DNA of 64,000 nucleotides from Candidatus Babeliales bacterium. GTDB taxonomy: Bacteria > Babelota > Babeliae > Babelales > JANWKD01. The notes under the pieces are model-generated. The model did no database searches. It was given only the letters and a program-made list of their open reading frames with translations, and had not been told where the DNA came from. The translations under genes and the position numbers were made by a program. The stretch covers positions 320,001 to 384,000 of the forward strand of contig OY969622.1 in assembly GCA_963701665.1 (NCBI GenBank), in the 5' to 3' direction. Each line of letters opens with the position of its first letter. Within the stretch, counting starts at the first letter, position 1. Positions 17,384 through 38,458 of this stretch are shown in pieces.

Positions 17384-18561
17384 TGTATGTGTTCAGAGTT
17401 TCGGTGAATAATTTTTGGCACAAAGAGACAAGCAGAGTTAAATTGAAAATTTTTTAATTCCCTTAAACGGGTGTGCTCGATTCCTTCAACAAAGCTGATG
17501 GAATTTTACCATCCAAACCTTGATGGGGCCGATGTTCATTATGATAGAAATTATAGCCAAGAACAGCATCTTTTAGTTCATCAATTGTGTTAAATATAGA
17601 TCCTTCAATAACTTCATCATCAAAAGAACGCCAAAATCTCTCAATTTTTCCATTTGTTTGAGGCTTATAAGGGAGGGTTCTTCGGTGCTTAATAGCAAAA
17701 TGAAGTAGCAATCTTTCAAAAGGATGATTTTTTAATCTTTCTGGACCTGAACAAAATTCAGCACCATTATCAGTTAAAGCTTCATCAAATGTGATACCGT
17801 ATCGTTGGTTCATATGCAAAATGATATCCATCATAGCAAAAGTCACATCTATTGCTTTGAGAGATTCAATTACTTCAACCCAAACTATTCTAGAGAAGTC
17901 ATCAATAACTCCCAGCACAAAATATTTCTTTTTAGGTTCAGATTGCACAATTTCTTTAGGTAAGTAATGGCAATCTATATGGGCTAATGACCCTGCGAAT
18001 GTTCTCACGATCTTTCTTTTTTCCTCTTGTACTCGTTTAGTTAACTTAGAAACGCCATATTTTCGTAATGTTCGATATACTGAACTTGCAGAACAACCCT
18101 TTTTAATCAAGGGATTTTTTTTGAGGGCTGCGGCAATAACATACCTATTTAAACCTGATTTCCGATACTCTAAAATTTGTTTTACAAGACTATCATCTGC
18201 AAGCGGCATTTCTTCAAACTTAGGCTTGGGACCGCGTCTTATAGGCAACAAAAGTTCGGGAATTTCCTGAGCAGCTTTGTAGCGTCTGTAAAGCTTATAA
18301 AAATTCTGAAAACAGAGTTCTCTGGCTTCAAAAAATTCTCGAACACGCTTAAATTGAGGGTGTTTTTTTGACTTAACAAGTTCGTATTCTTCCACATATT
18401 TTAGCATATATTTAATTGAATTGCTTGCTAAAGTACGATACGATGTATTTATACCCATAAAAGGAACTCCTGTTAAAATTGTTAATATTTGCATATTTAA
18501 TTCTAACTCTGATTTCCCTTTGTGGGTATCTTTTTATTCACCGAAATTATGAACTTCTACA
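17384..18561 (-). mobile_element. IS481-family insertion sequence, 1178 bp
   Basis: TGT...ACA ends; imperfect IRs TGTATGTGTTCAGAGTTTCGGTGAATAA and TGTAGAAGTTCATAATTTCGGTGAATAA; 5-bp target duplication ATTGC at 17379-17383 and 18562-18566. Confidence 0.92.
17463..18494 (-). CDS. IS481-family DDE transposase
   Basis: HIDCH, IDDFSR, TDNGAEF, PQTNGKIERF and YHNEHRPHQGL motifs. The true start may be MGINT at 18458. Confidence 0.92.
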   Translation of the reverse strand: MQILTILTGVPFMGINTSYRTLASNSIKYMLKYVEEYELVKSKKHPQFKRVREFFEARELCFQNFYKLYRRYKAAQEIPELLLPIRRGPKPKFEEMPLADDSLVKQILEYRKSGLNRYVIAAALKKNPLIKKGCSASSVYRTLRKYGVSKLTKRVQEEKRKIVRTFAGSLAHIDCHYLPKEIVQSEPKKKYFVLGVIDDFSRIVWVEVIESLKAIDVTFAMMDIILHMNQRYGITFDEALTDNGAEFCSGPERLKNHPFERLLLHFAIKHRRTLPYKPQTNGKIERFWRSFDDEVIEGSIFNTIDELKDAVLGYNFYHNEHRPHQGLDGKIPSALLKESSTPV

Positions 18562-18751: not shown

Positions 18752-20248
18752 TCAACTCGGATATACTTTCAAATTTGTTGCAGATAGATAGGGATTAATT
18801 TCTGGATTTTGTAATTCAGCAATAGTCGAGCAACAAGCTGCAGCAGGATCGCCTGAAGCAGTAAGTGCGCCAACCCAATATTCGTTGCCGGGATATGAAT
18901 TGCCATCCCATGCATAACAAGCAACTAATAATTTACCAGCATCATGCCCTTTTAATGGGTCTGCGGGATTTCTTTGAGAAAAGTGTATCGTAATTGCATT
19001 AGTATGTGTCTTGAAGATACCACCATTTTTAACCTCACCGAATGAATGTATATAGTCAGGAAACCAGATGAAATTGAGATCCGAAATATATGATAAATCA
19101 TGGTGCTTTATAATATCTGCATAGGTGTCGATCATCAATTGCCATTGTTCATTAATTATTCTCCATACACCAAGGCCAAGACCGACGACTTGCACATAGG
19201 CCCGCTTACCTTGTTGTTGAGCGCGTTTATGTGCATCCAATAAAAAAGGCTCGAGTACTAATTTTAGACGTTCTTTATATACAAAACTGTCGAAATATTT
19301 TTTGCCTCCTTCAAAAGGAATGTATCTTCCTGAAGTATCCTGTTGTGCTTGTTCATACGTAGGAAAACTAAAACCATAGAGCGTAGACCATAAAGCAAGA
19401 GCTTTGTTCGATGTATTGCCCATACCGTAACCATGATTTTGAATATTTTGCTCAGGCGTAATAATTATGTGTTGCCATTCCATTAAGCCCTGTCTTTCAA
19501 ATCGTGCACCAACTAAACCGGCATAAATGCCTTTGGGTTCATAAGTTCCTGGTAATCCCGGCTGAGCTTTATTGTTTCGATCGCCATTATTAATGAAATA
19601 GGTTGGTACTGATACACCAAGAAGTGCCGCAATTTGCATTTCGTCATATGAAAGATAATCAGAAAGAATTAATGGTGGCTGTTCATGATTCGTTCCTATT
19701 GCTTCAAAGCCGCCCGCTCCTTGTGTATACCCATCTCTTAAAAGATAAGTATCAGCCGCCGTCATAAACATTAATGGACGCTTTGTAAGAAGGCGTTCAA
19801 CAAATGCTATATGATCCATCGTTGCATATAAACCTTTTTCTTTCTGAGTACCATGCTGTCGTTTGAAATTCAAAAAATTATGAATGAGCGTTACAGTTTT
19901 TTGATGTAGTAAAGGATAGGTGGAGCGCGCTTGTTCAACTATTTCAGTTTGTTTATGTATATCATGTGCTGCAATTGCGTTAATTCTATTTGCATGGGTG
20001 GGAAAAAGTGATTTTTTGCCTTTTTTAACTGCTTTTTTATCAAAATATTCAGAATTTTTTACGAATGCGAGAAATTCATGATTAACAGTAGATTTAGGAG
20101 GAACTTTTGCTGATGGTTTTTTTAAAACCAGTAAACTGTTATGCAGGGAATCGAGAGTTGAGTGCAAGCTTGTTAATTCTTCTGCTAGATGTGCTAGCAT
20201 CATTCTGCATATAACAAGACAGGCTATCATTAATAAAATTTTTTTCAT
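18752..20248 (-). CDS. DUF4804-family (MavL/Larg1-like macrodomain) protein with signal peptide
   Basis: YLSYDEM, GLGLGVW and YAWDGNSYPGNEYW.G.L.ASGDPAAACCS motifs. Confidence 0.8.
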   Translation of the reverse strand: MKKILLMIACLVICRMMLAHLAEELTSLHSTLDSLHNSLLVLKKPSAKVPPKSTVNHEFLAFVKNSEYFDKKAVKKGKKSLFPTHANRINAIAAHDIHKQTEIVEQARSTYPLLHQKTVTLIHNFLNFKRQHGTQKEKGLYATMDHIAFVERLLTKRPLMFMTAADTYLLRDGYTQGAGGFEAIGTNHEQPPLILSDYLSYDEMQIAALLGVSVPTYFINNGDRNNKAQPGLPGTYEPKGIYAGLVGARFERQGLMEWQHIIITPEQNIQNHGYGMGNTSNKALALWSTLYGFSFPTYEQAQQDTSGRYIPFEGGKKYFDSFVYKERLKLVLEPFLLDAHKRAQQQGKRAYVQVVGLGLGVWRIINEQWQLMIDTYADIIKHHDLSYISDLNFIWFPDYIHSFGEVKNGGIFKTHTNAITIHFSQRNPADPLKGHDAGKLLVACYAWDGNSYPGNEYWVGALTASGDPAAACCSTIAELQNPEINPYLSATNLKVYPS

Positions 20249-27535: not shown

Positions 27536-27591
27536 GATATTGATTTCAGGTTACAACACATCTAGACGGTGTTTCGATCGTTTAATATCAC
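27536..27591 (+). repeat. Decayed copy 1 of the recombinase C-terminal tail sequence
   Basis: Translates DIDFRLQHI*TVFRSFNIT; matches 30833-30890. Confidence 0.75.
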
Positions 27592-27675
27592 TGGGTATAC
27601 CCGGTTGACAGACCCTATCTTTTCCTATATTATTAATTCTAATAGAATATTTACTTAATTAAGGGGCGCTTTGGG

Positions 27676-29802
27676 ATGACAATGATGCGTATTGTGTGTT
27701 TTTTTTCTTTCCTATTCTGTTTTGCTGTTCAATCAGTGGGGGCAATGGAATTAAGCTCATTGAAAGAATTTACTGATGAAGAAATAACTATTTTCATTAA
27801 GGACAATCTTCAAGAAATTCCTCGATTAGTTGGGTTATTATTAAATCAAGAAAAGCTATTCGATTTATATGATCATTTTGTTTGTGAGCAGATAGGAAAA
27901 GATGAATATATAAGAGAATTGAAAAATATTGATGCAGCTCTTTTACACATAAGCAAAACAGTACTTCATTGTCCTGAACGATTAAAAGTATTTATAAATC
28001 CAATAACCCAATATATACATCTACTTAAAAATCAAAAAAATCCCTTGAGCTTAGAACAAAAAATAAGCATTATTAAAAATCTTCGTGATAAATACGTGCA
28101 GATCAAAAATAGGTGTACAGTACTCATAGCGCAAATGAATAATGCCTATAGGCGCACCAGTTGCTTAGAAATAGCTAGTACTGATGAAAAAGATAACCCA
28201 AAAAAAAATCGACACTTAATTTCAAAACAGGAATTAGGGTTTATGGATTCATCTTTGGACTCTCATTTTTGCACTTTTATGCACAATATTTGCAGGACAC
28301 TCGAAATCCAAGGATATCTTGCCGAAGTAATTGTATTTGTTCATCAATCACTCAAAGAACTTGATCACAGACTTACTATATATAGAGAAACATTGTCGCA
28401 GAGTAATGTTTTAGAAAAAAATGAGAATGTTGGAAATATTCCTAATGCACGGCCCGGTGAATATGCCTATATAATAAAAAAACCTAAATCTCTTGAAGCT
28501 TGTTATGTTGCATATATTATTGGTGGTCTTTCAAAAGATCCTGCTGCCTTCGATAAGCTTGGTGGGATTGCCTTATCATTAATTAATCATCAAAACGAAG
28601 AAATAAGGGATTATGCAAAATTAGCATTAGCAAAAAGTAACTTTGATCGAGCCTTAGATCACTATATAAAATTAGTTAAAATTTTCTTAAAAATTTACGA
28701 CCAAGATCCAATAATGAAATACTTCGAAACAGCTTATCAAGTGAATGCTCTCAATAATCCATCAATATCTTTCCTACCTTGTTCCCTTTTTCGTTTTATG
28801 CATCTTTTAAATCAAGCAAATAACAATCTTAATGAAGTTCGAGAATATTCTGAAAAATTAACTGTTATCAACGGCTTACTCGGTTATACAGAAGAGTTTC
28901 TTAATGAATATAAGGCAAACCAAAAAACATATGCTACCAATTATAAAAGATTAAAAGACACTTTAAGAAGTTTGATGCCTAAATGTCCTACATCGCAACT
29001 GTATACTATGACTCGGTACTTAAATGAGAGTTCTTTGGAGCCATATTGTTTGGAGACTGTTCTTAAAGGTAATTTCTTAAGCGATGAAGAAATTCAAATA
29101 ATCTTAAGGATGCGAAAAAATAAGCCCACAAGCACGACAGAAGATGTGGCGGCAAATGTTGTTGATGTGAGAACAGTACCGGAAAAAAAACAAAAAAATA
29201 TAAAAAAAGTTCAGCCTAAAAAGAAAAAAAGAAGTAGAAGAAAAAATCAGGGAAAAAACAAAAAAAGAGAAGAAGCATCGGAAAAAGAAAATCCTGAAAC
29301 AAAATCTCTCGATCAAAAACAAACAAATTCACAAAAAATTCGTCTTGCGGATAAGAAAATTGCAAAAAAAATTGTTGATAGTGAAAATAATATGACACTA
29401 TCTGTATGTTGCATGAAAGATCCTGATCCTGCAGCAGGTAAACTTATAATTTACGATGATCGTGTTCAACAATGGTTCACAGATCCCCAGAAAGCACTTG
29501 CTCAAAAAGGATTTGCTGAACATGATCCACGCAGAGATACTTCTATTCCGTTCCACAGCTTTGCAAAAGACATTGACAAATACGCTCTAAAATGGGGATT
29601 CAAAAGAGCAGGCCAAAATAATCATGGAAAACATGTAACAGAAATATATTTGCCAGGCTTTATTGAAAAAGATGGAACCTTCTTCGAGGGACTTTTCGTT
29701 TACGTCATAGATGTAAAAATGCTTTGTTATCACAGATTTTTTACTATTTGTGATTGGCATCAAAAACTTGCTGATGAATGGCAAGTAGATTTTGAAGAAT
29801 AA
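27676..29802 (+). CDS. Large secreted hypothetical protein with K/R-rich tract
   Basis: 708 aa; signal peptide followed by MEL; KKKKRSRRKNQGKNKKR. Confidence 0.8.
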   Translation: MTMMRIVCFFSFLFCFAVQSVGAMELSSLKEFTDEEITIFIKDNLQEIPRLVGLLLNQEKLFDLYDHFVCEQIGKDEYIRELKNIDAALLHISKTVLHCPERLKVFINPITQYIHLLKNQKNPLSLEQKISIIKNLRDKYVQIKNRCTVLIAQMNNAYRRTSCLEIASTDEKDNPKKNRHLISKQELGFMDSSLDSHFCTFMHNICRTLEIQGYLAEVIVFVHQSLKELDHRLTIYRETLSQSNVLEKNENVGNIPNARPGEYAYIIKKPKSLEACYVAYIIGGLSKDPAAFDKLGGIALSLINHQNEEIRDYAKLALAKSNFDRALDHYIKLVKIFLKIYDQDPIMKYFETAYQVNALNNPSISFLPCSLFRFMHLLNQANNNLNEVREYSEKLTVINGLLGYTEEFLNEYKANQKTYATNYKRLKDTLRSLMPKCPTSQLYTMTRYLNESSLEPYCLETVLKGNFLSDEEIQIILRMRKNKPTSTTEDVAANVVDVRTVPEKKQKNIKKVQPKKKKRSRRKNQGKNKKREEASEKENPETKSLDQKQTNSQKIRLADKKIAKKIVDSENNMTLSVCCMKDPDPAAGKLIIYDDRVQQWFTDPQKALAQKGFAEHDPRRDTSIPFHSFAKDIDKYALKWGFKRAGQNNHGKHVTEIYLPGFIEKDGTFFEGLFVYVIDVKMLCYHRFFTICDWHQKLADEWQVDFEE

Positions 29803-29818
29803 ATATTGTGACAACTGC

Positions 29819-29885
29819 TTTCACGTTACAGCACTTCCAGATGGTATTTCGATCATTTAATATCGCTCTAAAGGAATACTAAAAA
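29819..29885 (+). repeat. Decayed copy 2 of the recombinase C-terminal tail sequence
   Basis: Translates FTLQHFQMVFRSFNIALKEY*; matches 30838-30904. Confidence 0.8.
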
Positions 29886-29897
29886 TGTTTTGAGCTT

Positions 29898-30206
29898 TTA
29901 ACTTGCTGGTTTTAAATGAAAAGCAAATACCGCAAGAAAAAAACCAATTATTGAAATTATTTTAAATAATTTTTGATTCATTTTTTCTGCAGGAGAAATC
30001 CCACCGTATGTTTGAATTTCCCAGCCTTTTTGACCTAAAACTGATGTTGCTATTGGGATAATACTAAAAGATTGGAACCCTTGGATAAAGCTCTTAGAAA
30101 AAAAATGAAAAGTGTTTATCCAAATTGCCAAGCAATGAATGAAACATATCAGTATAAATGATATAATAGCTGCTTTACAATATGACTTTATGACATTTTG
30201 AATCAT
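29898..30206 (-). CDS. Small membrane hypothetical protein
   Basis: 102 aa with hydrophobic segments and an AAGG RBS. Confidence 0.55.
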   Translation of the reverse strand: MIQNVIKSYCKAAIISFILICFIHCLAIWINTFHFFSKSFIQGFQSFSIIPIATSVLGQKGWEIQTYGGISPAEKMNQKLFKIISIIGFFLAVFAFHLKPAS

Positions 30207-30244
30207 AATAATAACCTTAAAACATTAAAAGACTGGCCGTGCCA

Positions 30245-30387
30245 GCCCAGTCTTCGCTTGCAATGGAATGCCTTCGAAGTGAAACTGAGCTTCGACGGGC
30301 AATCTACGCCATCATTCCGTTAAAGGAACTGGCGAAGCCAATCGTAGCCAAATTACACATCGAAGTTTTTCCCCATGCAGGCGTAGA
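30245..30387 (-). repeat. Palindromic repeat downstream of GIY-YIG, homologous to the tRNA-Ala 3' flank
   Basis: Reverse complement aligns with 51477-51613. Confidence 0.85.
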
Positions 30388-30391
30388 ATTA

Positions 30392-30634
30392 TTATAGCAG
30401 TCTTTTCTTTCTAAATTCCCTACCCGATCCAGATTTTAGAAATTCTTCAAATGCATATGCTTTTAATTTATCTTGAAATGCTGCATAAAAAAACAATTTC
30501 CAAGGTAAATATTTTGCGGTATGTGGTGTTGTCCCAGCATTATGATTAGAAAGTCTTTTTTCTAAATCCTCAGTACAACCAACATATATCTGATTAGGGA
30601 GATTTATGGATTGGATAATATAAACGTAATGCAT
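30392..30634 (-). CDS. GIY-YIG nuclease family protein
   Basis: YVYII..IYVGCT.DL.KRL..HN...E.FLKSG.GR motif. Confidence 0.92.
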   Translation of the reverse strand: MHYVYIIQSINLPNQIYVGCTEDLEKRLSNHNAGTTPHTAKYLPWKLFFYAAFQDKLKAYAFEEFLKSGSGREFRKKRLL

Positions 30635-30671
30635 CTGGTGAGTCCAAAGAAAATAAAATTTATTAAATGTT

Positions 30672-30790
30672 GGCCTGCCGGTCCTCCTGCGCCAAGGCTC
30701 CGGCGGACAGCCTACGTTTTCACTTTTCTCTTAGTATCAATTTCATTTAAAAAGATGGCCGCGCCAGCCGGAGTTCGGAAGAACGTAGGC
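30672..30790 (-). repeat. Palindromic repeat upstream of GIY-YIG
   Basis: GCCTACGTT...AACGTAGGC stem plus a CCTCCTGCGCCAAGGCTCCGGCGGAC hairpin; same architecture as 30245-30387. Confidence 0.65.
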
Positions 30791-30901
30791 TGGTGTCACA
30801 TAGTGGATGTATTCAGGAACAATATTTTGACCATAGATTTTACGTTACAGCACATCCAGACGGTGTTTCGATCATTTAATATCGCCCTAGAAGAATGCTA
30901 A
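30791..30901 (+). other. Putative severed C-terminal tail of the serine recombinase (distal att junction)
   Basis: WCHIVDVFRNNILTIDFTLQHIQTVFRSFNIALEEC* begins with the same TGGTGT (Trp-Cys) codons that end the recombinase (QA-WC-AR*). Confidence 0.65.
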
Positions 30902-30953
30902 AAAACGCCTCCTGGTTATTGGAAGATTAATGTTTATTTTTTTAAAAAGATTG

Positions 30954-32159
30954 TTAAAAAAGAGTTACAAGAAGAGTTTTTATGAATAACTCCTGTGCCA
31001 AAGGTTTTGTTTGTTTGTTATATTTTTCAAAACTTAATGAATTTGTATCAAAATTTTTTACAAATTCTGACAGTGCTTTAAGTGAAAGGAATGGAATAGT
31101 AAGAGCTGCTCCAGTGAGAGGATGAGGACTTGTTCTGGCATCACCCCAAAGAATAATTGGCCTTCCTTGATAGGAAATAGCTCCTTCTGTGGCAAGTGCT
31201 GGAATAAAATTGACAAAGGAAATAACATCAGTCGCATCAGAAAATGGTATGGATGTGGGTTGATTTTTTTTTGTAGCATAAAGATACCAGTAAATTGCTG
31301 GATTATTTGGCACTAATGAGAATTTTGTGTCATTGGGTTTAATTGCTGCTAATCTTTTTATTTGTGATTGTACTCCGTTGCCAACCAAAGAGACTTTAAA
31401 ACCCCAATTAACGTTTTCTCCTGATATTCGTTCTTTCTTTAATCCCGGTAAAAGTTTAGTTTCTGATTCATATCGCAATGCAGCAACTCCATGAGTTGTG
31501 TATTCAGGAAAATTTTTAAAGTTAAATTTCTTTATAAATTTAGGATTTTTCTGCTTTGCTAAAGTATTTGCTCCAGTTGATAGAATGATTACTTGCGCAT
31601 CATCTTGAATTTCTTTTAATTGCGTTTTTTTTCCATAAAGAATATCTACTTGATGCTTTTGACAGATATGAGCAAGGGCATTTTGAAAGTCACCTATAGC
31701 GATTCGATAGGAACGAAGCTTAGTAGGATTATCTAGTTCCATTTCAAATTGAATAAGTTGTTGTTCTTTTAAAAATAGATCAAGCTCTGGGAATTCATTT
31801 TGAATGAACTGAGGAACATTAATGGAAACATTTTGCCAGCGTCGATCAAATTCTTCCTTTGTTCGCTTTTCGTGTACACAAACCCTGTGACCATCTCGAG
31901 CTAATGCAAGTGCTGCTATAAGACCACTTGGTCCAGCTCCTAAAATAGCTACCTTCTTTGAATCACAAGATGCAATATCATTATCGTTAGGATATTCGTA
32001 TGTTTCTGTAGGTGCGTTGTAGTGAGGATTCCGAATGAAAAATTCGCGAATTAGGTCTCGATTATTGTAATGAGGATTATCAGATAGAATCTCTTGGGCT
32101 TTTTTAATTACTAGAGGAACTAATTGTTCTGTTGCAGAATTTTGAAAATTTTCCTCCAT
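30954..32159 (-). CDS. FAD-dependent monooxygenase/oxidoreductase
   Basis: VAILGAGPSGL, HEKR and WGDA...HPLTG motifs. Confidence 0.8.
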   Translation of the reverse strand: MEENFQNSATEQLVPLVIKKAQEILSDNPHYNNRDLIREFFIRNPHYNAPTETYEYPNDNDIASCDSKKVAILGAGPSGLIAALALARDGHRVCVHEKRTKEEFDRRWQNVSINVPQFIQNEFPELDLFLKEQQLIQFEMELDNPTKLRSYRIAIGDFQNALAHICQKHQVDILYGKKTQLKEIQDDAQVIILSTGANTLAKQKNPKFIKKFNFKNFPEYTTHGVAALRYESETKLLPGLKKERISGENVNWGFKVSLVGNGVQSQIKRLAAIKPNDTKFSLVPNNPAIYWYLYATKKNQPTSIPFSDATDVISFVNFIPALATEGAISYQGRPIILWGDARTSPHPLTGAALTIPFLSLKALSEFVKNFDTNSLSFEKYNKQTKPLAQELFIKTLLVTLF

Positions 32160-32249
32160 TGCAGCAAGAAAGCTAATGCTTGAGAAAATAATTAAAACAA
32201 TTGTTTTTTTATTAATAAAAATATTTCTGATTTGTTCTATAGCTTTTTC

Positions 32250-32552
32250 CTAATTAGAGTTTTTAAAAGATGAGGCAGTTTCCCATATCTCAGTGCTTAT
32301 ATTAAATGCTGGCCTAACAAGGTTGAGAAAACGATATACTGAAATCCTATCATGTTGTAACACATTATTAATAAATTGAATCGACATGCCGATTTCAATA
32401 TTATCTCCTTTGCATTCATCTACAGCAAATTTAAGATCGTCATTTAATAGCCGTATATATTTTTCGGTCTCTAAATTATTTATCATTTTTTTCCTAATGT
32501 ATGTTACAACCAATTGTTTTTTAGCCCAAAGATAACTCTGACAATTTTTCAA
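32250..32552 (-). pseudogene. Gene fragment in frame with the FAD oxidoreductase, separated by TAG
   Basis: TTG start without an obvious RBS; the frame stays open for 30 codons after the TAG into the ATG at 32159. Confidence 0.35.
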
Positions 32553-32653
32553 ATCAAGTTTCTGACGAAAAATTATTTACTTGATTTTATTTCCAAATCG
32601 AATATACTCTCCCTTTGTAGTAATTGAAGTATCTCTTCATCAAAGGAACAATC

Positions 32654-32779
32654 ATGTTCTTGCCTAACAGAACTCAGATTCTGTATCTCCCTTCACAAAA
32701 TTGGCTTGCAATGGGCCTCATGGCTATTTATTTAGTATTTCGTGAGATTATTGAGCAAGATAACTGCTGCGCAGCTTAA
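32654..32779 (+). CDS. Small hydrophobic peptide (41 aa)
   Basis: MFLPNRTQILYLPSQNWLAMGLMAIYLVFREIIEQDNCCAA*, with an AAGGA RBS and TTGATT-N16-TATACT upstream. Confidence 0.45.
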   Translation: MFLPNRTQILYLPSQNWLAMGLMAIYLVFREIIEQDNCCAA

Positions 32780-32879
32780 CCCAATCGTTAGTTCCTAAAT
32801 TCCAAAAATGGTTTTATAACCATAAAAATTTAAAAAAAGAAATTTAAGATATTTTCAAAAATATCTTGAGGAGATTTGT

Positions 32880-33116
32880 ATGAGAAATCCCCCTAGAGTA
32901 AATATAATATTATCTGTTGATGATAGAAGAAACTTTGTTGATCTTTTTGTAATATTGATTGCGGTTGACAGAAGAGTTAACGCAAGAAATAAGCCTAGAG
33001 CAAAGAAAAGCACAAAAGCAAAAACTAAGCGCAAAGAAATAGGCTCGCAAGTGCGGGCCTTGTTTTTTGTTATCAATCGTATTACCATTGAGCTCTTGAA
33101 AGGTATCTTTTTTTAA
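32880..33116 (+). CDS. Small basic protein upstream of rep
   Basis: GAGGAG RBS; co-directional with rep. Confidence 0.6.
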   Translation: MRNPPRVNIILSVDDRRNFVDLFVILIAVDRRVNARNKPRAKKSTKAKTKRKEIGSQVRALFFVINRITIELLKGIFF

Positions 33117-33135
33117 AAGCTAGTGCAGACAACAT

Positions 33136-34245
33136 ATGATCGACACCATTGTTTTTATTCTCGGCAAAGATAGCTTTCAAATCATTCATCCTGATAAATT
33201 CCAGCCTTCTGCAGCACTCTTGTTATCAACGTATTCTACAATACAGGCAAAACAGAACCCAACACGTCATGAACTCCTGAAAGGGAACTATAAGCCTCGC
33301 TTAACGCTGCAAAAGCGCCTTGATGCAAATGGCCATTTAGATCTCGTGTTAAAGGTTGAGCTTTCTTTACCAAAGCTTTTATTTGGCAATAATGTTGATG
33401 AGCTTTGCTATAAAGATTTTCCTCTAGTCATCAAAAAATTAGCGGCTGTGTTGCAGGAAATGGGCATTGAGACAACAGCGCAAGCCCTAGAGCATGCACC
33501 GCTCTCTAGCGTGCATTATGCCAAGAACATTCCCTTAACGGACGGCTCTACGCCCTATCATTTCATTAATAAAATCAAAGAAGCAAACATTAAAATCTCT
33601 CTAGACACAAACCAAACTGATTATCGCAACGATGGCCACAGTTATAAATGGCATTGCAACTCATATGAAGTTGTTTTCTATGATAAGATTCAAGATTTGG
33701 AAAAAGCCAAGAAAAGCAGCAAGCGATCGATTGATAAAGATAGTGCAATGAATCATTCGCTTTTCCCCTTTTTCAGGAAAAGAAAGAAATTTGAGATCCT
33801 TCGGATGGAAGTTCGATTGAATACACGGAAAAAAATAAAACAGTTGTTTAAAACGCTGGGGATAAAATCTGATTTAACATTAAAGAAGTTATTTAAGCCT
33901 GCAATTGCAAAGAAGGTTTTGTTGTATTATTTAGATGAACTGGAGTCAAAAAGGCCTGCCTTGCTTGATTATAAGCCTGCTCATGAAAAGGCTTTGCTTG
34001 CTGACTTAGTTCTTAATAATCCAGAATTAAGCCCTCGACAAATTATCCAGCTCTTTGGCTTAAAGCAAGCATTCAATGTTATGAGCCCTAGAGAGTTAAG
34101 AATGATATTTGCAAAATATAATCAGCGAGCTTGGTATAGGCTGATGAGTGATGCAAAGAAAGTGAAGTTGCCGATTGCACATCGGCCTCTAGCAGTTATT
34201 CGTAAAGAGTTAGCAAAGTTTAAGACATTAAATATGAAATTTTAA
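33136..34245 (+). CDS. Phage/plasmid replication initiation protein (Rep_trans/gpII-X-like)
   Basis: N-terminal MIDT, SLPKLLFGNN, FYDK and LRMEVR pattern typical of gpII/X-type rolling-circle initiators; located within an integrase island. Confidence 0.65.
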   Translation: MIDTIVFILGKDSFQIIHPDKFQPSAALLLSTYSTIQAKQNPTRHELLKGNYKPRLTLQKRLDANGHLDLVLKVELSLPKLLFGNNVDELCYKDFPLVIKKLAAVLQEMGIETTAQALEHAPLSSVHYAKNIPLTDGSTPYHFINKIKEANIKISLDTNQTDYRNDGHSYKWHCNSYEVVFYDKIQDLEKAKKSSKRSIDKDSAMNHSLFPFFRKRKKFEILRMEVRLNTRKKIKQLFKTLGIKSDLTLKKLFKPAIAKKVLLYYLDELESKRPALLDYKPAHEKALLADLVLNNPELSPRQIIQLFGLKQAFNVMSPRELRMIFAKYNQRAWYRLMSDAKKVKLPIAHRPLAVIRKELAKFKTLNMKF

Positions 34246-34256
34246 ATAGGGATTCA

Positions 34257-34808
34257 ATGGATATATCAAAACGACAAGAAAATTTTGAGCGTGCTCGTGA
34301 ATATATGAAAAAGCATATTGGCGAGCCATTAACACATGAACTTATTAATTCTATCCATGCAGAAATGGAACAAGTTCATGGATATAGAACTGGATCAGGA
34401 GCACCACCAGTTAAGAATGATTCTAAAATAGTTTATTGGCCTCCTGTAAGTAATGTTGTGTATAGTATTCCAGCAGAAATGCAGAAGCTTCTTGAATTGC
34501 ATAATCGCTCTCAAGAGCCAGCTATAGAACTTGCAGCTAAATTGCATTGGGGAATTGTTAAGATACATCCCTTTCTTGATGGCAATGGACGGACTGCACG
34601 TATCCTTTTTTCCTTCGTGCTTCTTAATCATGGTTATGATGATAATGTATGTAAAAAACTAGAAGAACATTTTGAATCCAATAAGAAAGAATATTTTGAT
34701 GCTCTTGATGATGGCCAAATATCATATCTAAGTTATGATAATGCAAGTCAGCAATGGTTAGCATATGTATGCAAAGCATACGAAGAAGTTAAATCGTTAT
34801 TGTCTTGA
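34257..34808 (+). CDS. Fic-domain protein
   Basis: Canonical HPFLDGNGRTAR motif. Confidence 0.93.
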   Translation: MDISKRQENFERAREYMKKHIGEPLTHELINSIHAEMEQVHGYRTGSGAPPVKNDSKIVYWPPVSNVVYSIPAEMQKLLELHNRSQEPAIELAAKLHWGIVKIHPFLDGNGRTARILFSFVLLNHGYDDNVCKKLEEHFESNKKEYFDALDDGQISYLSYDNASQQWLAYVCKAYEEVKSLLS

Positions 34809-34902
34809 AAATAATAATGATTAAATTTGTGAACAGCTGCTGCACAATTATAAATTTGAAGAATAGTTTAGGGTAAGACTTCAAAGAGTGCATTTAAGAG
34901 CT

Positions 34903-35253
34903 TTATTTATGCAAAGCAACTGCCTCATGTACGATTTTTGCGATTGTTTTTAGGGTAGGATTACCTTTTTTAGAGAAAGCTTGTGTAATGGTTGCTCTTG
35001 TTAGATTTGTCTTGGATGCGATGTGCGTTCTATTTACACATAAATAGGCATCCAATATTTCCATAAATGTTTCAGTGTCATTTTCGATTAAGCATTCTAG
35101 CAATGCTTTAGCAACTTCATTCTTATTTCTAAAAAATTCTGATGCTTTTGAAGCATGTAATTTTGATTCATCAATTTTAATGGGTTGCAAATCGTCTAAG
35201 GATAATACGTGCTTTTTTAATGTCTTTTTCTTGTTCATTTTTGTGTCCACCAA
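34903..35253 (-). CDS. Addiction module antidote (HTH antitoxin)
   Basis: S.KGNPTL.T HTH motif, downstream of and overlapping the toxin gene. Confidence 0.85.
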   Translation of the reverse strand: MVDTKMNKKKTLKKHVLSLDDLQPIKIDESKLHASKASEFFRNKNEVAKALLECLIENDTETFMEILDAYLCVNRTHIASKTNLTRATITQAFSKKGNPTLKTIAKIVHEAVALHK

Positions 35254-35470
35254 TAATTAAAACAATTTTCTTATGACCAATACGACTAAAGTATACTCTC
35301 CAGCCATTCTTCCATCTTAATTCAGCAAGATTATCACCTAACGGTTTTGCATCGCCAAGGTGTTCATCGTGTTCTATACGACTTATTCGAGCTTTAACCT
35401 TGACTTGTTCTTTCTTGGTTAAATTATTCAACCAGTCTAAATAATCATCTGTTTCTTGGATTTGTATCAT
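35177..35470 (-). CDS. RelE/ParE (HigB-like) toxin, addiction module killer protein
   Basis: WL..L...RI.RI...GD.K.LG...ELR...G.RVYF...GG.K..Q.KDI motif. Confidence 0.88.
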   Translation of the reverse strand: MIQIQETDDYLDWLNNLTKKEQVKVKARISRIEHDEHLGDAKPLGDNLAELRWKNGWRVYFSRIGHKKIVLIIGGHKNEQEKDIKKARIILRRFATH

Positions 35471-35557
35471 GTTTTAGCCAAATAAAGAATTTATTACCTA
35501 TCTACTGACTATTATATCATGCGCATATTATAATTGTCAATGGTATGGTAAAAATTC

Positions 35558-35663
35558 ATAAGATGCAGGGTTTGGAACCTGTATTAATTCTTACATGGGT
35601 TCTGAATGCATCCATCAAGAGCCGGTTACTTCACTCCAGAAATAATACTTTGCTACAATGCTA
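35558..35663 (+). repeat. ~105-bp direct repeat, copy 1
   Basis: Aligns with 36775-36884; contains a GATGCA..GAACC.TGTA/TACA.GGTTC..TGCATC hairpin. Confidence 0.85.
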
Positions 35664-35669
35664 ATGAAA

Positions 35670-36662
35670 TTACTTTATTAAAAAATCTTCTAATTCTGGA
35701 ACTATCTTACCGTTGAAAAATTCCTTAATATTCACAGCATCAGGCGGTATTGCTTGACCACTAGAATTCAAAATGAAATTCTCACCTAAAGTTTTTACAT
35801 TTTCATAACCAAGACTTTTCAATACTGGTAGAATGTTATCTATATGAACACCACCAGCCAAAATAAAAATATTGTCATTAATACTTTGATACATATTATG
35901 CATTATAAGAGCATTTAAAAGTTGTGAATCATAATAAAAGATTAAAGCTTCCTTCTTTTTTTCGGATGACCAATTTAAAGGAATTCTTCCATATGCTTTT
36001 TCTAAAGCATTATCGTATTGTTCTTTATATGTTAATAAAGGCAATATGTCTTTTAACGACTTCTCAGAATTTTTTAATGCCTCAAAAAAATCTTTACAGT
36101 CTTCTAAAATGGAATAGTAAATATCTAATATTTTTTTATAGTATGCATTGAGAATTTCATTATCATCATAACCTTTTATTTCTTGGGCAATTTTATTTGA
36201 AACATTTAAAGCAGAAGAAGCTTTTATATAGCCCCAGAGTGAAACTTTCTTAGGAGATCTGAATTCTACTGTTTTATTAACGATGCCATTATAATGACAA
36301 CGAGAAGCTAATGAATTAAGAGGACAGCCTGAGGCATCGTTTTTTACTTTCTCAAGTTCTTCTCGTGATCTATAATAATTTGAAGATTCATATTTTAAAG
36401 GATCTTCGAATATCATTTTCATTCCCTGATTGGTAGTGGCTTGATCTTCCACGATGACATTTGCATTTAATGATTTAGCTGATAATAAAATATCATTGGT
36501 TTGTGCATGACAGATGTTTAAGGGCACATCGCCATGAAAATCATAAAATAAATAAATGATTTTATTATTGTTTGGCAATTGGTCAATTTTATAGATGTAA
36601 CTAAAAGCAGGAAAAATAATATTACATAAAGATAATAAAATTATATAGAATTTTTTGCCCAT
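35670..36662 (-). CDS. Secreted hypothetical protein (cargo)
   Basis: 330 aa, signal peptide, very AT-rich, GGAG RBS. Confidence 0.75.
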   Translation of the reverse strand: MGKKFYIILLSLCNIIFPAFSYIYKIDQLPNNNKIIYLFYDFHGDVPLNICHAQTNDILLSAKSLNANVIVEDQATTNQGMKMIFEDPLKYESSNYYRSREELEKVKNDASGCPLNSLASRCHYNGIVNKTVEFRSPKKVSLWGYIKASSALNVSNKIAQEIKGYDDNEILNAYYKKILDIYYSILEDCKDFFEALKNSEKSLKDILPLLTYKEQYDNALEKAYGRIPLNWSSEKKKEALIFYYDSQLLNALIMHNMYQSINDNIFILAGGVHIDNILPVLKSLGYENVKTLGENFILNSSGQAIPPDAVNIKEFFNGKIVPELEDFLIK

Positions 36663-36774
36663 TCTTGTCTCTCCATTTCAAATTGAAATAAGCTAAGGAT
36701 AGATGCCAAGATAATATTATAATTTAATTTTATAAAATTGCGGATCTTCTTGTCAAGCTTATAATAAATGGCCT

Positions 36775-36884
36775 ATAAGATTCAGGATTTTGAATCTGTA
36801 TTAATTCTTAAATTGGTTCTGAATGCATCCCATCAAGAGCCTGTAATTTCACTCTCGAAATAATACTTTTATGCTACAATGCTA
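36775..36884 (+). repeat. ~105-bp direct repeat, copy 2 (recombinase upstream region)
   Basis: Aligns with 35558-35663 and ends in an extended -10-like TGCTACAAT. Confidence 0.85.
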
Positions 36885-36929
36885 TGGTCTAAAAATTACA
36901 TAATAATCATAAGCATTAGAGTATTCATC

Positions 36930-38396
36930 ATGAAAGCTATTGTCATTGCTCGTGTCAGCACAGAAGAACAAAAAGAAGCGGGCTTGTCATTGCCAGCTCA
37001 AGTTATGCGCCTTGAGAATTATTGCAAAAGCAAAGATTTTGATATTGTTCAAAGCTTTAGTTTTGATGAGAGCGCCTATAAAGATGATCGTGCGGAATTT
37101 GATCGCATCTTTGATTTCATCATGCAGCAAAAAGAAAAGATTGCCATTTGTTGTGATAAAGTCGATCGGCTTTCTCGCAATATGTTTGATAAGCGCGTAT
37201 CATTTCTCTATGAAAAGGCATTGCGTGATGAAATAGAACTGCACTTTGTCTCAGATGGTCAGATCATTAATAGCCGCATTTCTGCATCTGCAGCAGAAAA
37301 ATTCCATTTTGGCATCAGCCTCGGTTTGGCAAAATATTATTCAGATGCCATTAGTGACAATGTCAAACGAGCGTTGGAGCAGAAATTACGAAAAGGCGAG
37401 TGGCCTGCAAAAGCGCCCTATGGCTATCAAAACGTGCGCTACGCCGATGGCAAAGCCGATATTATTGTTGATGAATATTCATCACGCATCATTCAAAAGG
37501 CTTTTGAACTCTATGCAACAGAAGCATTTTCAATGGATCTACTACGGCAGAAATTGAACAAAGAATATGGCTTGAATTGGTCGAAAGGGTATGTGGATCA
37601 TCTGCTTAAGCTGCAATTTTATTGTGGTATCATGGTCTGGAATGACAAAATGTTTCCTCATCGTTATCCGCCTCTTATCTCAACAGATCTTTTTAAGAAG
37701 GTGCAACAAGTGAAAATGAACTTTAACAAAAAGCCCGTCAAATATGCCGGCATGCCGTATATCTATCGTGGGCTCATTCGTTGTGCAGAATGCGACCTTG
37801 CTATAACGCCGGAAAAGCATAAAGGCTATGTGTATTATCATTGCACACAATATAACGGCAAGCATGGAGCGCAGTGGCTACGACAAGAGGAAATCACCAA
37901 GCAACTAGAAAAAGTTTTTAAGAATTTGATAATGCCACAAGAAATAGTGCAGCAAGTTGTAGCAACACTCAATGCTGTTCATTTGGAAAAAATCGAATTT
38001 CATAACAAACATTTTACGAGGCTTACTAAAGAACACAAAGAGACCACTAAAATGCTCGATTCTCTTTATATGGATAAACTCAAGGGGAGAATTACTGAGA
38101 GCGAGTATGACAGATTTTACACAACACTCCGTGATCAAATCACTGATATTGATATTCAACTAGGCCAATTACAAGAGGCTGAAGATAACTACTATATTAC
38201 GGCAAAATACATACTGGATCTATCAAGCCGAGCATATGAATTGTTTGTGAGTTCTGAAGTTGAGGAAAAACGGCAGCTTATCAAGCTTATACTATCGAAC
38301 TTAAGGCTAGAGGGGAAAAAGCTCGTATTTGACGCTAAAAAACCGTTTGATTTGATACTAGATTATGGGGATCGTCAAGCATGGTGTGCCCGATAG
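36930..38396 (+). CDS. Large serine recombinase
   Basis: ARVST catalytic Ser, DRLSRN, APYGY recombinase domain, C..C...YYHC zinc ribbon and coiled coil. The last 5 codons lie inside tRNA-Arg. Confidence 0.95.
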   Translation: MKAIVIARVSTEEQKEAGLSLPAQVMRLENYCKSKDFDIVQSFSFDESAYKDDRAEFDRIFDFIMQQKEKIAICCDKVDRLSRNMFDKRVSFLYEKALRDEIELHFVSDGQIINSRISASAAEKFHFGISLGLAKYYSDAISDNVKRALEQKLRKGEWPAKAPYGYQNVRYADGKADIIVDEYSSRIIQKAFELYATEAFSMDLLRQKLNKEYGLNWSKGYVDHLLKLQFYCGIMVWNDKMFPHRYPPLISTDLFKKVQQVKMNFNKKPVKYAGMPYIYRGLIRCAECDLAITPEKHKGYVYYHCTQYNGKHGAQWLRQEEITKQLEKVFKNLIMPQEIVQQVVATLNAVHLEKIEFHNKHFTRLTKEHKETTKMLDSLYMDKLKGRITESEYDRFYTTLRDQITDIDIQLGQLQEAEDNYYITAKYILDLSSRAYELFVSSEVEEKRQLIKLILSNLRLEGKKLVFDAKKPFDLILDYGDRQAWCAR

Positions 38397-38458
38397 GATT
38401 CGAACCTATGACCTACGGATTAGAAATCCGTTGCTCTATCCAGCTGAGCTACGGGCAC
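38382..38458 (-). tRNA. tRNA-Arg(TCT)
   Basis: GTGCCCG acceptor stem, ACGGA-TT-TCT-AA-TCCGT anticodon arm, GGTTCGAATCC T-loop and encoded CCA. Confidence 0.97.

Follow-up and report, generated by a model that had tools for sequence, protein, structure and literature searches.

The window, a stretch of 64,000 nt from a Candidatus Babeliales bacterium, harbours an intact 7.6-kb element at a tRNA-Arg(TCT) gene, together with three copies of a direct repeat, each followed by a different gene (Table 1). The element encodes a large serine recombinase (LSR), whose gene runs into the CCA end of the tRNA gene, its last codons being read in the antisense tRNA. Domain matches to PF00239, PF07508 and PF13408 correspond to the LSR architecture, sequence matches in the PDB comprise the A118 and TP901-1 integrases, and a natural homolog whose gene is not split has a predicted fold like that of LSR structures. 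The third repeat copy starts with the same hexamer, TGGTGT, that is found at the tRNA gene (30791 and 38382) and is, therefore, the left end of the intact element. Within the element, the replication-protein-like gene accompanies an LSR in many relatives; the 78-aa ORF preceding it has no family match. LSRs catalyse attP x attB integration and require an RDF to excise; no RDF was identified here. The source genome contains a second LSR that is split in the same way at tRNA-Glu, with the core TGGCGT. The share of the element's words present in a sequencing run never exceeded 9%, with no RNA data set among the runs listed, and the contigs of relatives covering the element contain the integrated junction only; the lack of circles and of coverage over copies 1 and 2 in these data therefore carries no weight as evidence. 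A scan of IMG/VR with the LSR yielded no confirmed locus.

Table 1. Features of the repeat region and of the resident element (window positions).
Feature	Position	Strand	Remarks
Repeat copies, shared 51 nt	27539-27589, 29814-29864, 30833-30883		direct orientation
Copy 1, decayed LSR-tail fragment	27539..27589	+	tail codons 15-31; nonsense codon; without att core or arm
Sigma-70-like site	27605..27633	+	11/12 consensus matches; consensus match only; precedes 708-aa gene
708-aa protein	27676..29802	+	signal-peptide-like hydrophobic N-terminus; putative cargo of relic 1
Copy 2, LSR-tail fragment	29802..29885	+	codon 11 to stop; without att core or arm
102-aa protein	29898..30206	-	two hydrophobic segments
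Repeat of tRNA-end family	30232..30387	-	
80-aa single-domain GIY-YIG nuclease gene (Ssn-like)	30392..30634	-	PF01541, E 4e-16; between repeats
Hairpin	30750..30790	-	directly following displaced ACACCA; z -2.17
Left junction core TGGTGT	30791..30796	+	predicted crossover dinucleotide 30795-30796
Copy 3, complete detached LSR tail	30791..30901	+	36 codons + stop; in frame with the LSR's last conserved Trp
FAD/NAD(P)-binding oxidoreductase-like gene	30954..32159	-	inside element
78-aa ORF	32880-33116		precedes replication-protein-like gene
Replication-protein-like gene	33136..34245	+	PHROG 702, E 4.7e-5
Fic/DOC-family gene	34257..34808	+	
RelE/ParE-type toxin and HTH antidote pair	35177-35470 and 34903-35253	-	
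110-bp direct repeats	35558-35663, 36775-36884		86% identity; copies of the LSR's upstream region
330-aa gene	35670-36662	-	between the direct repeats
LSR (Resolvase + Recombinase + Zn-ribbon)	36930..38396	+	ORF open from 36879
Right junction core TGGTGT	38382..38387	+	reverse complement of the last six bases of tRNA-Arg(TCT)
tRNA-Arg(TCT), target	38382..38458	-	

The direct repeat at three sites, which had originally been noted, is real and extends over 51 nt with 82–88% identity; also the translations given for the copies are correct, as is the nonsense change in copy 1 (CAG to TAG, 27563-27565). Over the 51 nt, copy 2 is 82% and copy 3 is 88% identical to copy 1, while copies 2 and 3 have a longer stretch of 84 nt in common (85% identity). 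In an ungapped scan of both strands of the 1.34-Mb genome with the 51-mer of copy 3, copy 1 gave 45 matches, copy 2 gave 44 and a fourth copy 42; since the next best site in the genome reaches only 32, the repeat is not a product of chance. Copies 1 and 2 are truncated at the 5' side: the first 42 nt of the tail are missing from copy 1 and the first 30 nt from copy 2, and their matches to the tail cover only codons 15-32 and 11-34, respectively. Copy 3 reaches 42 nt further left than the shared 51 nt, up to the core at 30791. A genome-wide scatter of the repeat is ruled out by the presence of only five tail-profile sites in the source genome, namely the three in the window, one at the LSR element at tRNA-Glu, and one orphan. 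This orphan, the fourth copy, is placed at 704 kb of the genome, where it follows an ftsW/rodA-like gene rather than adjoining a tRNA gene, and its similarity begins at core position 6.

The repeats can be identified as the detached 3' end ("tail") of the LSR gene. The tail is the piece missing from this gene and not a duplicate of its present end: LSR and tail share the 6-bp core in frame at both junctions, at the CCA end of tRNA-Arg, which bears out the recombinase-tail identity and the tRNA link that had been proposed for the repeat. A natural fusion of LSR and tail exists as a 522-aa ORF in the genome G164, an arrangement of LSR fragment, core and tail is present in G187 and G243, and an LSR C-terminal end directly precedes the tail in 17 of 116 profile matches. 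Hence the crossover lies inside the integrase gene and exchanges its C-terminus, as in self-splitting integrases of the Mx8, rumA ICE and DsiB type. Among Babeliales-like relatives, 20 tails start with TGG and have a facing tRNA in the locus; in 18 of them, the first six bases coincide with the 3' end of the nearest such tRNA, whereas 10,000 shuffles gave a mean of 5.2 and a maximum of 14 such matches.

The tail also varies like a coding sequence. Pairwise differences among 42 tails amount to 0.43/0.28/0.56 for the three codon positions, and the pattern persists in tail codons 11-30, beyond the att arm. For the four copies of the source genome, where a comparison of synonymous and non-synonymous changes had been suggested, a synonymous excess is found, although it is small and uneven between pairs (copies 2 and 3 differ in 2 synonymous and 4 non-synonymous codons). 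The tail profile is present in 105 of the 261 genomes of the order, often in arrays, with tails of one locus and of related genomes not being independent of each other. When the junctions of nine cognate pairs were rejoined, 65 of 117 positions were symmetric about core positions 5/6, compared with 43 for the next axis and 38 for empty sites; the 13-bp arm was picked afterwards, and 25-bp arms gave a weak signal (82 vs 76). With the 13-bp arms, the rejoined sites form an imperfect inverted repeat about a predicted 2-bp crossover, as in the attP of an LSR, which requires little identity to attB; the core shared here is 6 bp. The tail is modelled as two helices (pLDDT about 65-69), to which neither a placement nor a function could be assigned.

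The genes following the copies, once proposed as candidate effectors, are those originally described, coding for the 708-aa protein, the 102-aa protein and the FAD enzyme, a FAD/NAD Rossmann protein. No Pfam, NCBIfam or PHROG family and no usable match in the ESM Atlas was obtained for the 708-aa protein; in G082, its homolog and a tail are 7.7 kb apart, and the 30 kb read contain neither an LSR nor a tRNA gene. By a crude heuristic, signal-like N-termini are common in the source genome (337 of 978 ORFs). The pair of tail and 102-aa gene recurs in G003, with continuous DNA homology and an intact core, and in G183. Homologs of the FAD gene in G001 and G004 are found near a DUF488 gene, and the 4.2-kb locus of G004 is free of a tail; the FAD gene, therefore, need not be element-borne everywhere. 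The distribution of the cargo is patchy, and in the genomes searched none of the intervening genes behaves as a syntenic core gene.

Between the 102-aa gene and copy 3, a GIY-YIG nuclease gene is enclosed by hairpin repeats. The repeat on one side belongs to a family whose members begin 2 nt past the 3' end of a tRNA or tmRNA gene in 12 of 37 such genes in the source genome, and the hairpin on the other side is likely the former downstream neighbour of tRNA-Arg. A single-domain GIY-YIG gene with flanking hairpin repeats dispersed genome-wide is also known from the Ssn nucleases and their SRM hairpins (PMC11893778); here, in contrast, the repeats directly follow tRNA 3' ends, and the word "tRNA" is absent from the main text of that paper.

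Taken together, we consider it probable that the repeats are detached LSR 3' ends, copy 3 being the intact left junction, whereas copies 1 and 2 are truncated remnants that likely go back to two related elements inserted earlier. Repeated integration that leaves tails behind, as originally put forward, is the best reading overall, except that copy 3 is no relic but belongs to the resident element. Most likely, the elements that left copies 1 and 2 behind have since lost their LSR; their separate integration is deduced rather than seen, because neither an LSR remnant nor an att core survives beside these copies. In the proposed mechanism, attP would lie inside the LSR gene on the excised circle, and the enzyme encoded there would include the 36-residue tail. 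On integration, crossover at core positions 5-6 would restore the CCA end of the tRNA gene, leaving the LSR body beside it and moving the tail to the far end. With each insertion, the elements already present would be displaced further from the tRNA gene, and later deletions would have stripped them of LSR body and att arms, with a tail and its adjacent gene remaining. Prior to the insertion of the present element, the hairpin/GIY-YIG unit was likely located at the end of the tRNA gene.

Other histories of the array have to be weighed against this. Copies 1 and 2 could stem from one older element, in which the tail segment was duplicated around a captured or recombined 708-aa gene, implying two integrations instead of three. 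Copy 2 indeed starts at, and abuts, the stop codon of the 708-aa gene, the 330-aa gene is likewise flanked by duplicated element DNA (the 110-bp repeat of the LSR's upstream region), and plain tandem duplications with paralogous cargo occur in some arrays (G240 and G173). However, no other local pair differs as much as copies 1 and 2 (9 of 51 positions, against 6 between copies 1 and 3), and copy 1 is missing more 5' sequence than copy 2, so that a further deletion would be needed anyway; we regard this history as unlikely. Still less credible is a role of the repeat as an independent small gene or RNA, for instance a directionality peptide, multiplied for its own function. The coding-type conservation and the short ORFs that gene callers make from the tail would fit, but the tail has no start codon of its own and the sequence preceding it varies freely, copy 1 contains a stop, no stable fold is formed, and the natural in-frame fusion to the LSR also speaks against it, which makes this the least probable of the explanations considered.

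The repeat had also been proposed to be a cassette recombination site. A working system of this kind, with recombinase-less mini-elements moved in trans by the resident LSR, would be compatible with inner units elsewhere that have intact cores (three in G240; also in G176) or junctions of LSR end, core and tail (G187 and G243) and that could be mobilised in trans. An integrase-less unit with intact att sites, as expected of cis-mobilizable or accreted elements, is present in some other genomes (G240) but not at copies 1 and 2. These begin beyond the 13-bp symmetric arm, the shared 51 nt starting 42 nt from the core start, and without core and att arm they cannot be standard LSR sites; moreover, the shared 51 nt vary by codon, unlike a binding site. 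We consider such a system very unlikely. Integrons employ the tyrosine recombinase IntI and attI/attC sites. The array in the window resembles them in having a recombinase beside a row of variable genes separated by repeats, but the chemistry is that of a serine recombinase and the repeats are coding scars. The integron-like character once suggested for the array is ruled out: the IntI profile TIGR02249 had no match over cut-off in the genome, whose two PF00589 genes both lie more than 340 kb from the window; no attC-like single-stranded hairpin was found in the three copies (z-scores from -1.05 to +1.23, both strands); and, instead of co-oriented, mostly promoterless cassettes, one gene is on the plus and two are on the minus strand, with the 708-aa gene preceded by its own promoter-like site.

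Split integrases and tandem accretion are already known. Among the closest systems are the Dehalococcoides ssrA islands (PMC3146451), where the 3' end of the gene for the serine recombinase DsiB overlaps att and tandem islands occur, many of them without integration module; their authors propose that the full enzyme is made only on the circle or beside an adjacent island. These islands differ in that their target is tmRNA, their repeat is 20 bp long and their module has six genes including DsiA; the present element, in contrast, uses tRNA CCA ends with a core of 6 bp, combines an LSR with a Rep-like gene, and has a defined tail of 36 conserved codons. Streptococcal rumA ICEs (PMC4701971) likewise have att inside a serine integrase gene, with a different C-terminus in the excised form, but they are conjugative and target a protein-coding gene, and the available description mentions neither a tRNA target nor tail arrays. 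In IntP of Myxococcus phage Mx8 (PMC6070905, PMC4701971) and in archaeal suicidal integrases (PMC8371274), attP is inside the integrase gene and integration swaps or splits the C-terminus, with a change of activity in the case of Mx8. Both are tyrosine recombinases, while the catalytic, recombinase and zinc domains of the present LSR all stay on the tRNA side and only the short tail is lost. In tycheposons (10.1101/2020.12.28.424599), new elements push older ones from the tRNA, and remnants and cargo accumulate; partial tRNA copies serve as markers in that case, and the integrases are mostly tyrosine enzymes, whereas here the sole tRNA-derived repeat is 6 bp and the LSR tail is the marker. An LSR at tRNA CCA ends was not found in the published literature searched. 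A passage of the 2014 Islander paper (PMC4383910) describes serine integrases as not known to target tRNA genes, the main text of an LSR survey preprint (10.1101/2021.11.05.467528), as available, does not contain "tRNA", and the accessible part of PMC12884075 yielded no serine/tRNA statement.

A wider reading, which we hold only tentatively and as a whole doubt more than we believe, is that the tail acts as a directionality switch: the circle's enzyme with the tail would integrate, and the tail-less chromosomal enzyme would excise or idle. A stacked second element might then rebuild a full gene and attP in the chromosome and drive rearrangements, to which the orphan with its precise junction at 704 kb might belong, up to the point where the inner att arm is lost by deletion; exactly this arm is lacking in the inner copies here, as would follow if its deletion ends the rearrangements. 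As part of the same tentative reading, the arrays might be among the main ways in which Babeliales-like parasites of protists acquire accessory genes.

The data show neither an integron nor an effector array. What the window contains is a decayed tandem stack, the outcome of a known process, and the family behind the stack matters more. With its core of only 6 bp, this family would likely escape searches relying on tRNA fragments, and the tail is a usable marker for element ends and tRNA islands across the order (105 of 261 genomes). If the tail changes the behaviour of the enzyme, it would represent a built-in directionality control for an enzyme class used in genome engineering.

A 51-nt repeat was confirmed in triplicate in the window at 82–88% mutual identity, copies 2 and 3 sharing a stretch of 84 nt. 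Against both strands of the 1.34-Mb genome, the 51-mer of copy 3 gave 45, 44 and 42 matches at copy 1, copy 2 and a fourth copy, and 32 at the next best site. The last conserved Trp codon of the large serine recombinase (LSR) gene opens the hexamer TGGTGT, the reverse complement of the last six bases of tRNA-Arg, and a second TGGTGT opens the frame that runs across copy 3. As this core is present at both the LSR end and the start of copy 3, it delimits a 7.6-kb element with a 6-bp core at its ends, carrying genes for an FAD-type enzyme, a Rep-like protein (PHROG 702), Fic, a RelE-type toxin-antidote pair and a 330-aa protein. Copy 3 is thus the intact end of an element, that is, the “tail” or detached 36-codon 3' end of the LSR gene.

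Coordinates of the features discussed (window positions unless a genome position or a locus read, L, is named; G, genomes among 261 of the same order)
Feature	Position	Strand	Remark
rve-type transposase gene	17463-18494		left of array
MavL-like ADP-ribosylhydrolase gene	18752-20248		PF16062, E 3e-123; left of array
Copy 1	27539		tail profile codons 15-32; in-frame stop at 27563-27565
Copy 2	29814		tail profile codons 11-34
tRNA-end repeat	30232-30387		family at 12 of 37 tRNA/tmRNA genes, starting 2 nt after their 3' ends
Second TGGTGT	30791-30796		open frame of 36 codons, stop at 30901
Copy 3	30833
7.6-kb element	30791-38387
Open frame upstream of FAD gene	32160-32225	minus	signal-peptide-like; without ATG, GTG or TTG
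110-bp direct repeat	35558-35663 and 36775-36884		86%
LSR gene	36930-38396		Resolvase, Recombinase and zinc-ribbon domains; 3' end runs into tRNA-Arg(TCT) 3' end
tRNA-Arg(TCT)	38382-38458	minus	LSR target
Fourth copy (tail)	near genome 704,150; L095:14104-14196 = genome 704103-704195	minus
Third LSR	L096, genome 646248-658000		ends in tRNA-Arg(CCT)
Three LSR genes at tRNA-Asn	L065:795-12679		G164
Tail+gene array	L066:5363-8464		G240
Tail+gene array	L068:1574-10690		G173
Palindromes inside tails	L021:4760-4821, L021:3025-3085, L024:16830-16865		G001 and G003

Left of the second TGGTGT lie a hairpin, a GIY-YIG gene and the tRNA-end repeat; in G001, G032, G009 and G023, hairpin and GIY-YIG gene directly follow the tRNA, which fits the DNA left of the core being a former neighbour of tRNA-Arg. 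In relatives assembled from sequencing runs X1, X2 and X5, the hairpin end and TGGTGT precede the tail, and one 3,493-nt X1 contig, about 93% identical, extends from the tail through the FAD gene to the Rep gene. The named LSR homologs that score best carry the labels Candidatus Babeliales, Babeliaceae or Dependentiae/TM6, a single CPR name following further down, so that the host probably belongs to the Babeliales/Dependentiae group as well. The 110-bp repeat duplicates the LSR upstream region and encloses the 330-aa signal-peptide-like gene, and one X1 contig spans the toxin-antidote pair and its first copy. The frame of the FAD gene stays open upstream, where its homologs in G001 and G004 begin with Met; an unusual or a lost start codon is possible.

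Two repeat families directly follow tRNA 3' ends (12 and 8 of 37 tRNA/tmRNA genes), and several genes of the GIY-YIG type lie nearby. This arrangement is Ssn/SRM-like, with a preference for tRNAs that the main text on Ssn nucleases (PMC11893778) does not mention.

The split-gene reading was examined on several grounds. A second LSR of the genome sits at tRNA-Glu; its tail, which has the core TGGCGT, lies at a distance of 4.3 kb, and a repeat of the tRNA-end family seen in the window ends 2 nt before that tail. The more distant third LSR (33%) adjoins primase-like genes, and the tail profile gave no tail for it at tRNA-Arg(CCT). Across 45 long loci fetched for tail hits, 57 distinct tails were present, of which 32 start with TGG; 20 of these face an in-locus tRNA, and 18 have a first hexamer identical to the 3' end of that tRNA (Arg, Asp, Glu, Gln, Asn). 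Shuffles averaged 5.2 such matches and never exceeded 14; the rows are not independent. TGG is the first codon in 44 of 70 distinct tails, and in the 42 kept after dropping one early stop and one deletion, differences at codon positions 1/2/3 amount to 0.43/0.28/0.56, the order being unchanged in codons 11-20 and 21-30. The proposed comparison of synonymous and non-synonymous changes among the genome's own copies yielded no clear ratio, four being too few.

When LSR end and cognate tail were joined in silico for nine elements, the joined sequences were most symmetric, in inverted orientation, about the axis between core positions 5 and 6. With 13-bp arms, 65 of 117 positions agreed, against 43 for the next axis and 38 for empty sites; this arm length was picked after the 25-bp result, from the length of an LSR half-site. 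With 25-bp arms the lead was small (82 vs 76), one pair being offset by a base. Since similarity of the fourth copy begins at core position 6, it points independently to the same crossover. That tail lies directly 3' of a gene which, from its sequence, we take to be ftsW/rodA-like, with no tRNA nearby; a 245-aa gene beside it is matched at 78% by a homolog located in G004 within the tRNA-Arg island.

Joined forms exist in nature: G164 has a 522-aa ORF combining LSR and tail, G187 and G243 carry LSR fragment, core and tail, and in 17 of 116 tail-profile hits an LSR match that extends at least to model position 477 immediately precedes the tail (any LSR match in 22). Among at least 120 full LSR homologs, counting those listed, most end 3–4 residues past the Trp or continue into antisense tRNA, and about seven, judged by eye, have a tail-like end instead. 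The modelled unsplit enzyme (mean pLDDT 86, pTM 0.46) matches LSR structures; its tail forms two helices (pLDDT about 65–69), from which no function can be read.

The repeats are therefore quite probably recombinase-tail scars of stacked integrative elements. From this anatomy, we infer the steps of circle formation, integration, stacking and deletion. The excised circle would carry attP inside the LSR gene and encode an enzyme with the tail; upon recombination with the tRNA end, the CCA would be rebuilt from the element's own bases, the LSR body staying beside the tRNA and the tail being displaced. A later element would enter the same end and push the earlier one outward, older LSR genes and att arms being lost by deletion, so that leftward from the tRNA the present element, the hairpin/GIY-YIG unit, relic 2 and relic 1 (copies 2 and 1 with their cargo) would follow. 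Of the original prediction that related elements integrated repeatedly at this tRNA and left their tails, the tail-tRNA link stood and stacking is the best reading, except that copy 3 belongs to a complete element. Alternatively, copies 1 and 2 could stem from one element, duplicated around the 708-aa gene; the 330-aa gene within its 110-bp repeats shows that such duplications occur here, yet we regard this as unlikely.

The further proposals, an integron-like array and, alternatively, the repeat itself as a cassette recombination site, were rejected. The first 42 and 30 nt of the tail are missing from copies 1 and 2, respectively, which consequently lack core and symmetric arm; no LSR remnant was found beside them, and by sequence they cannot be standard LSR sites. 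A genome search gave no IntI over the cut-off, the two tyrosine recombinases both lie far from the window, the copies show no attC-like fold, and cargo gene orientation is mixed. The 708-aa gene has a promoter-like site, in a scan that is weak overall (17 such sites vs 15.5 expected). As to effectors, a crude signal-peptide heuristic accepts 337 of the 978 ORFs that are at least 150 aa long, and 44% of CDS in Chromulinavorax have a signal peptide (PMC6561590), so such a peptide does not single out the cargo genes.

Tail-profile hits occur in 105 of the 261 genomes. In the 20 stretches read, tails commonly form arrays of two to four. These comprise arrays with cores kept, with an LSR piece kept before the core, with 5'-truncated tails as in the window, and tandem duplications, which resemble successive stages of a single course of decay. 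The 102-aa gene after copy 2 has matches in five genomes; in G003 a tail followed by this gene aligns without a break to copy 2 and the gene next to it, the core being present except for its sixth base, and the pair recurs in G183. Matches to the 708-aa protein come from 14 genomes and are full-length only in G000 and G082. In G082 the gene is separated from a tail by 7.7 kb, and the 30 kb read contain neither an LSR nor a tRNA. The FAD gene, matched in three, lies near a DUF488 gene and not inside an element in G001 and G004.

Among the loci read, one of the three LSR genes of G164 is split by an inserted ORF, one is inverted and one is unsplit with its tail. The tail+gene arrays of G240 and G173 are regular; that of G240 has three intact cores and that of G173 an LSR-end fragment repeated before two tails; both are better candidates than the window for mobilisable mini-cassettes. 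Short palindromic repeats occupy the same place (after CCAGA) inside tails of two genomes, and in the congener G001 (L021-L022) the stretch between tRNA-Arg and a decayed tail has the opposite orientation to that in the source genome and holds short LSR fragments only.

Related arrangements are on record: DsiB overlaps attL in tandem ssrA islands (PMC3146451), integrases are split in rumA ICEs (a serine integrase; PMC4701971) and in Mx8 (PMC4701971, PMC6070905), archaea have suicidal integrases (PMC8371274), and accretion occurs at tRNAs (10.1101/2020.12.28.424599). According to the Islander paper, no serine integrase is known to target tRNA genes (PMC4383910), and a search of the open-access literature retrieved nothing that describes split LSRs targeting the tRNA CCA end, or such elements in Dependentiae. 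With split integrases and tandem accretion at tRNAs already known, the split LSR that targets the tRNA CCA end is apparently a new variant with respect to the literature searched.
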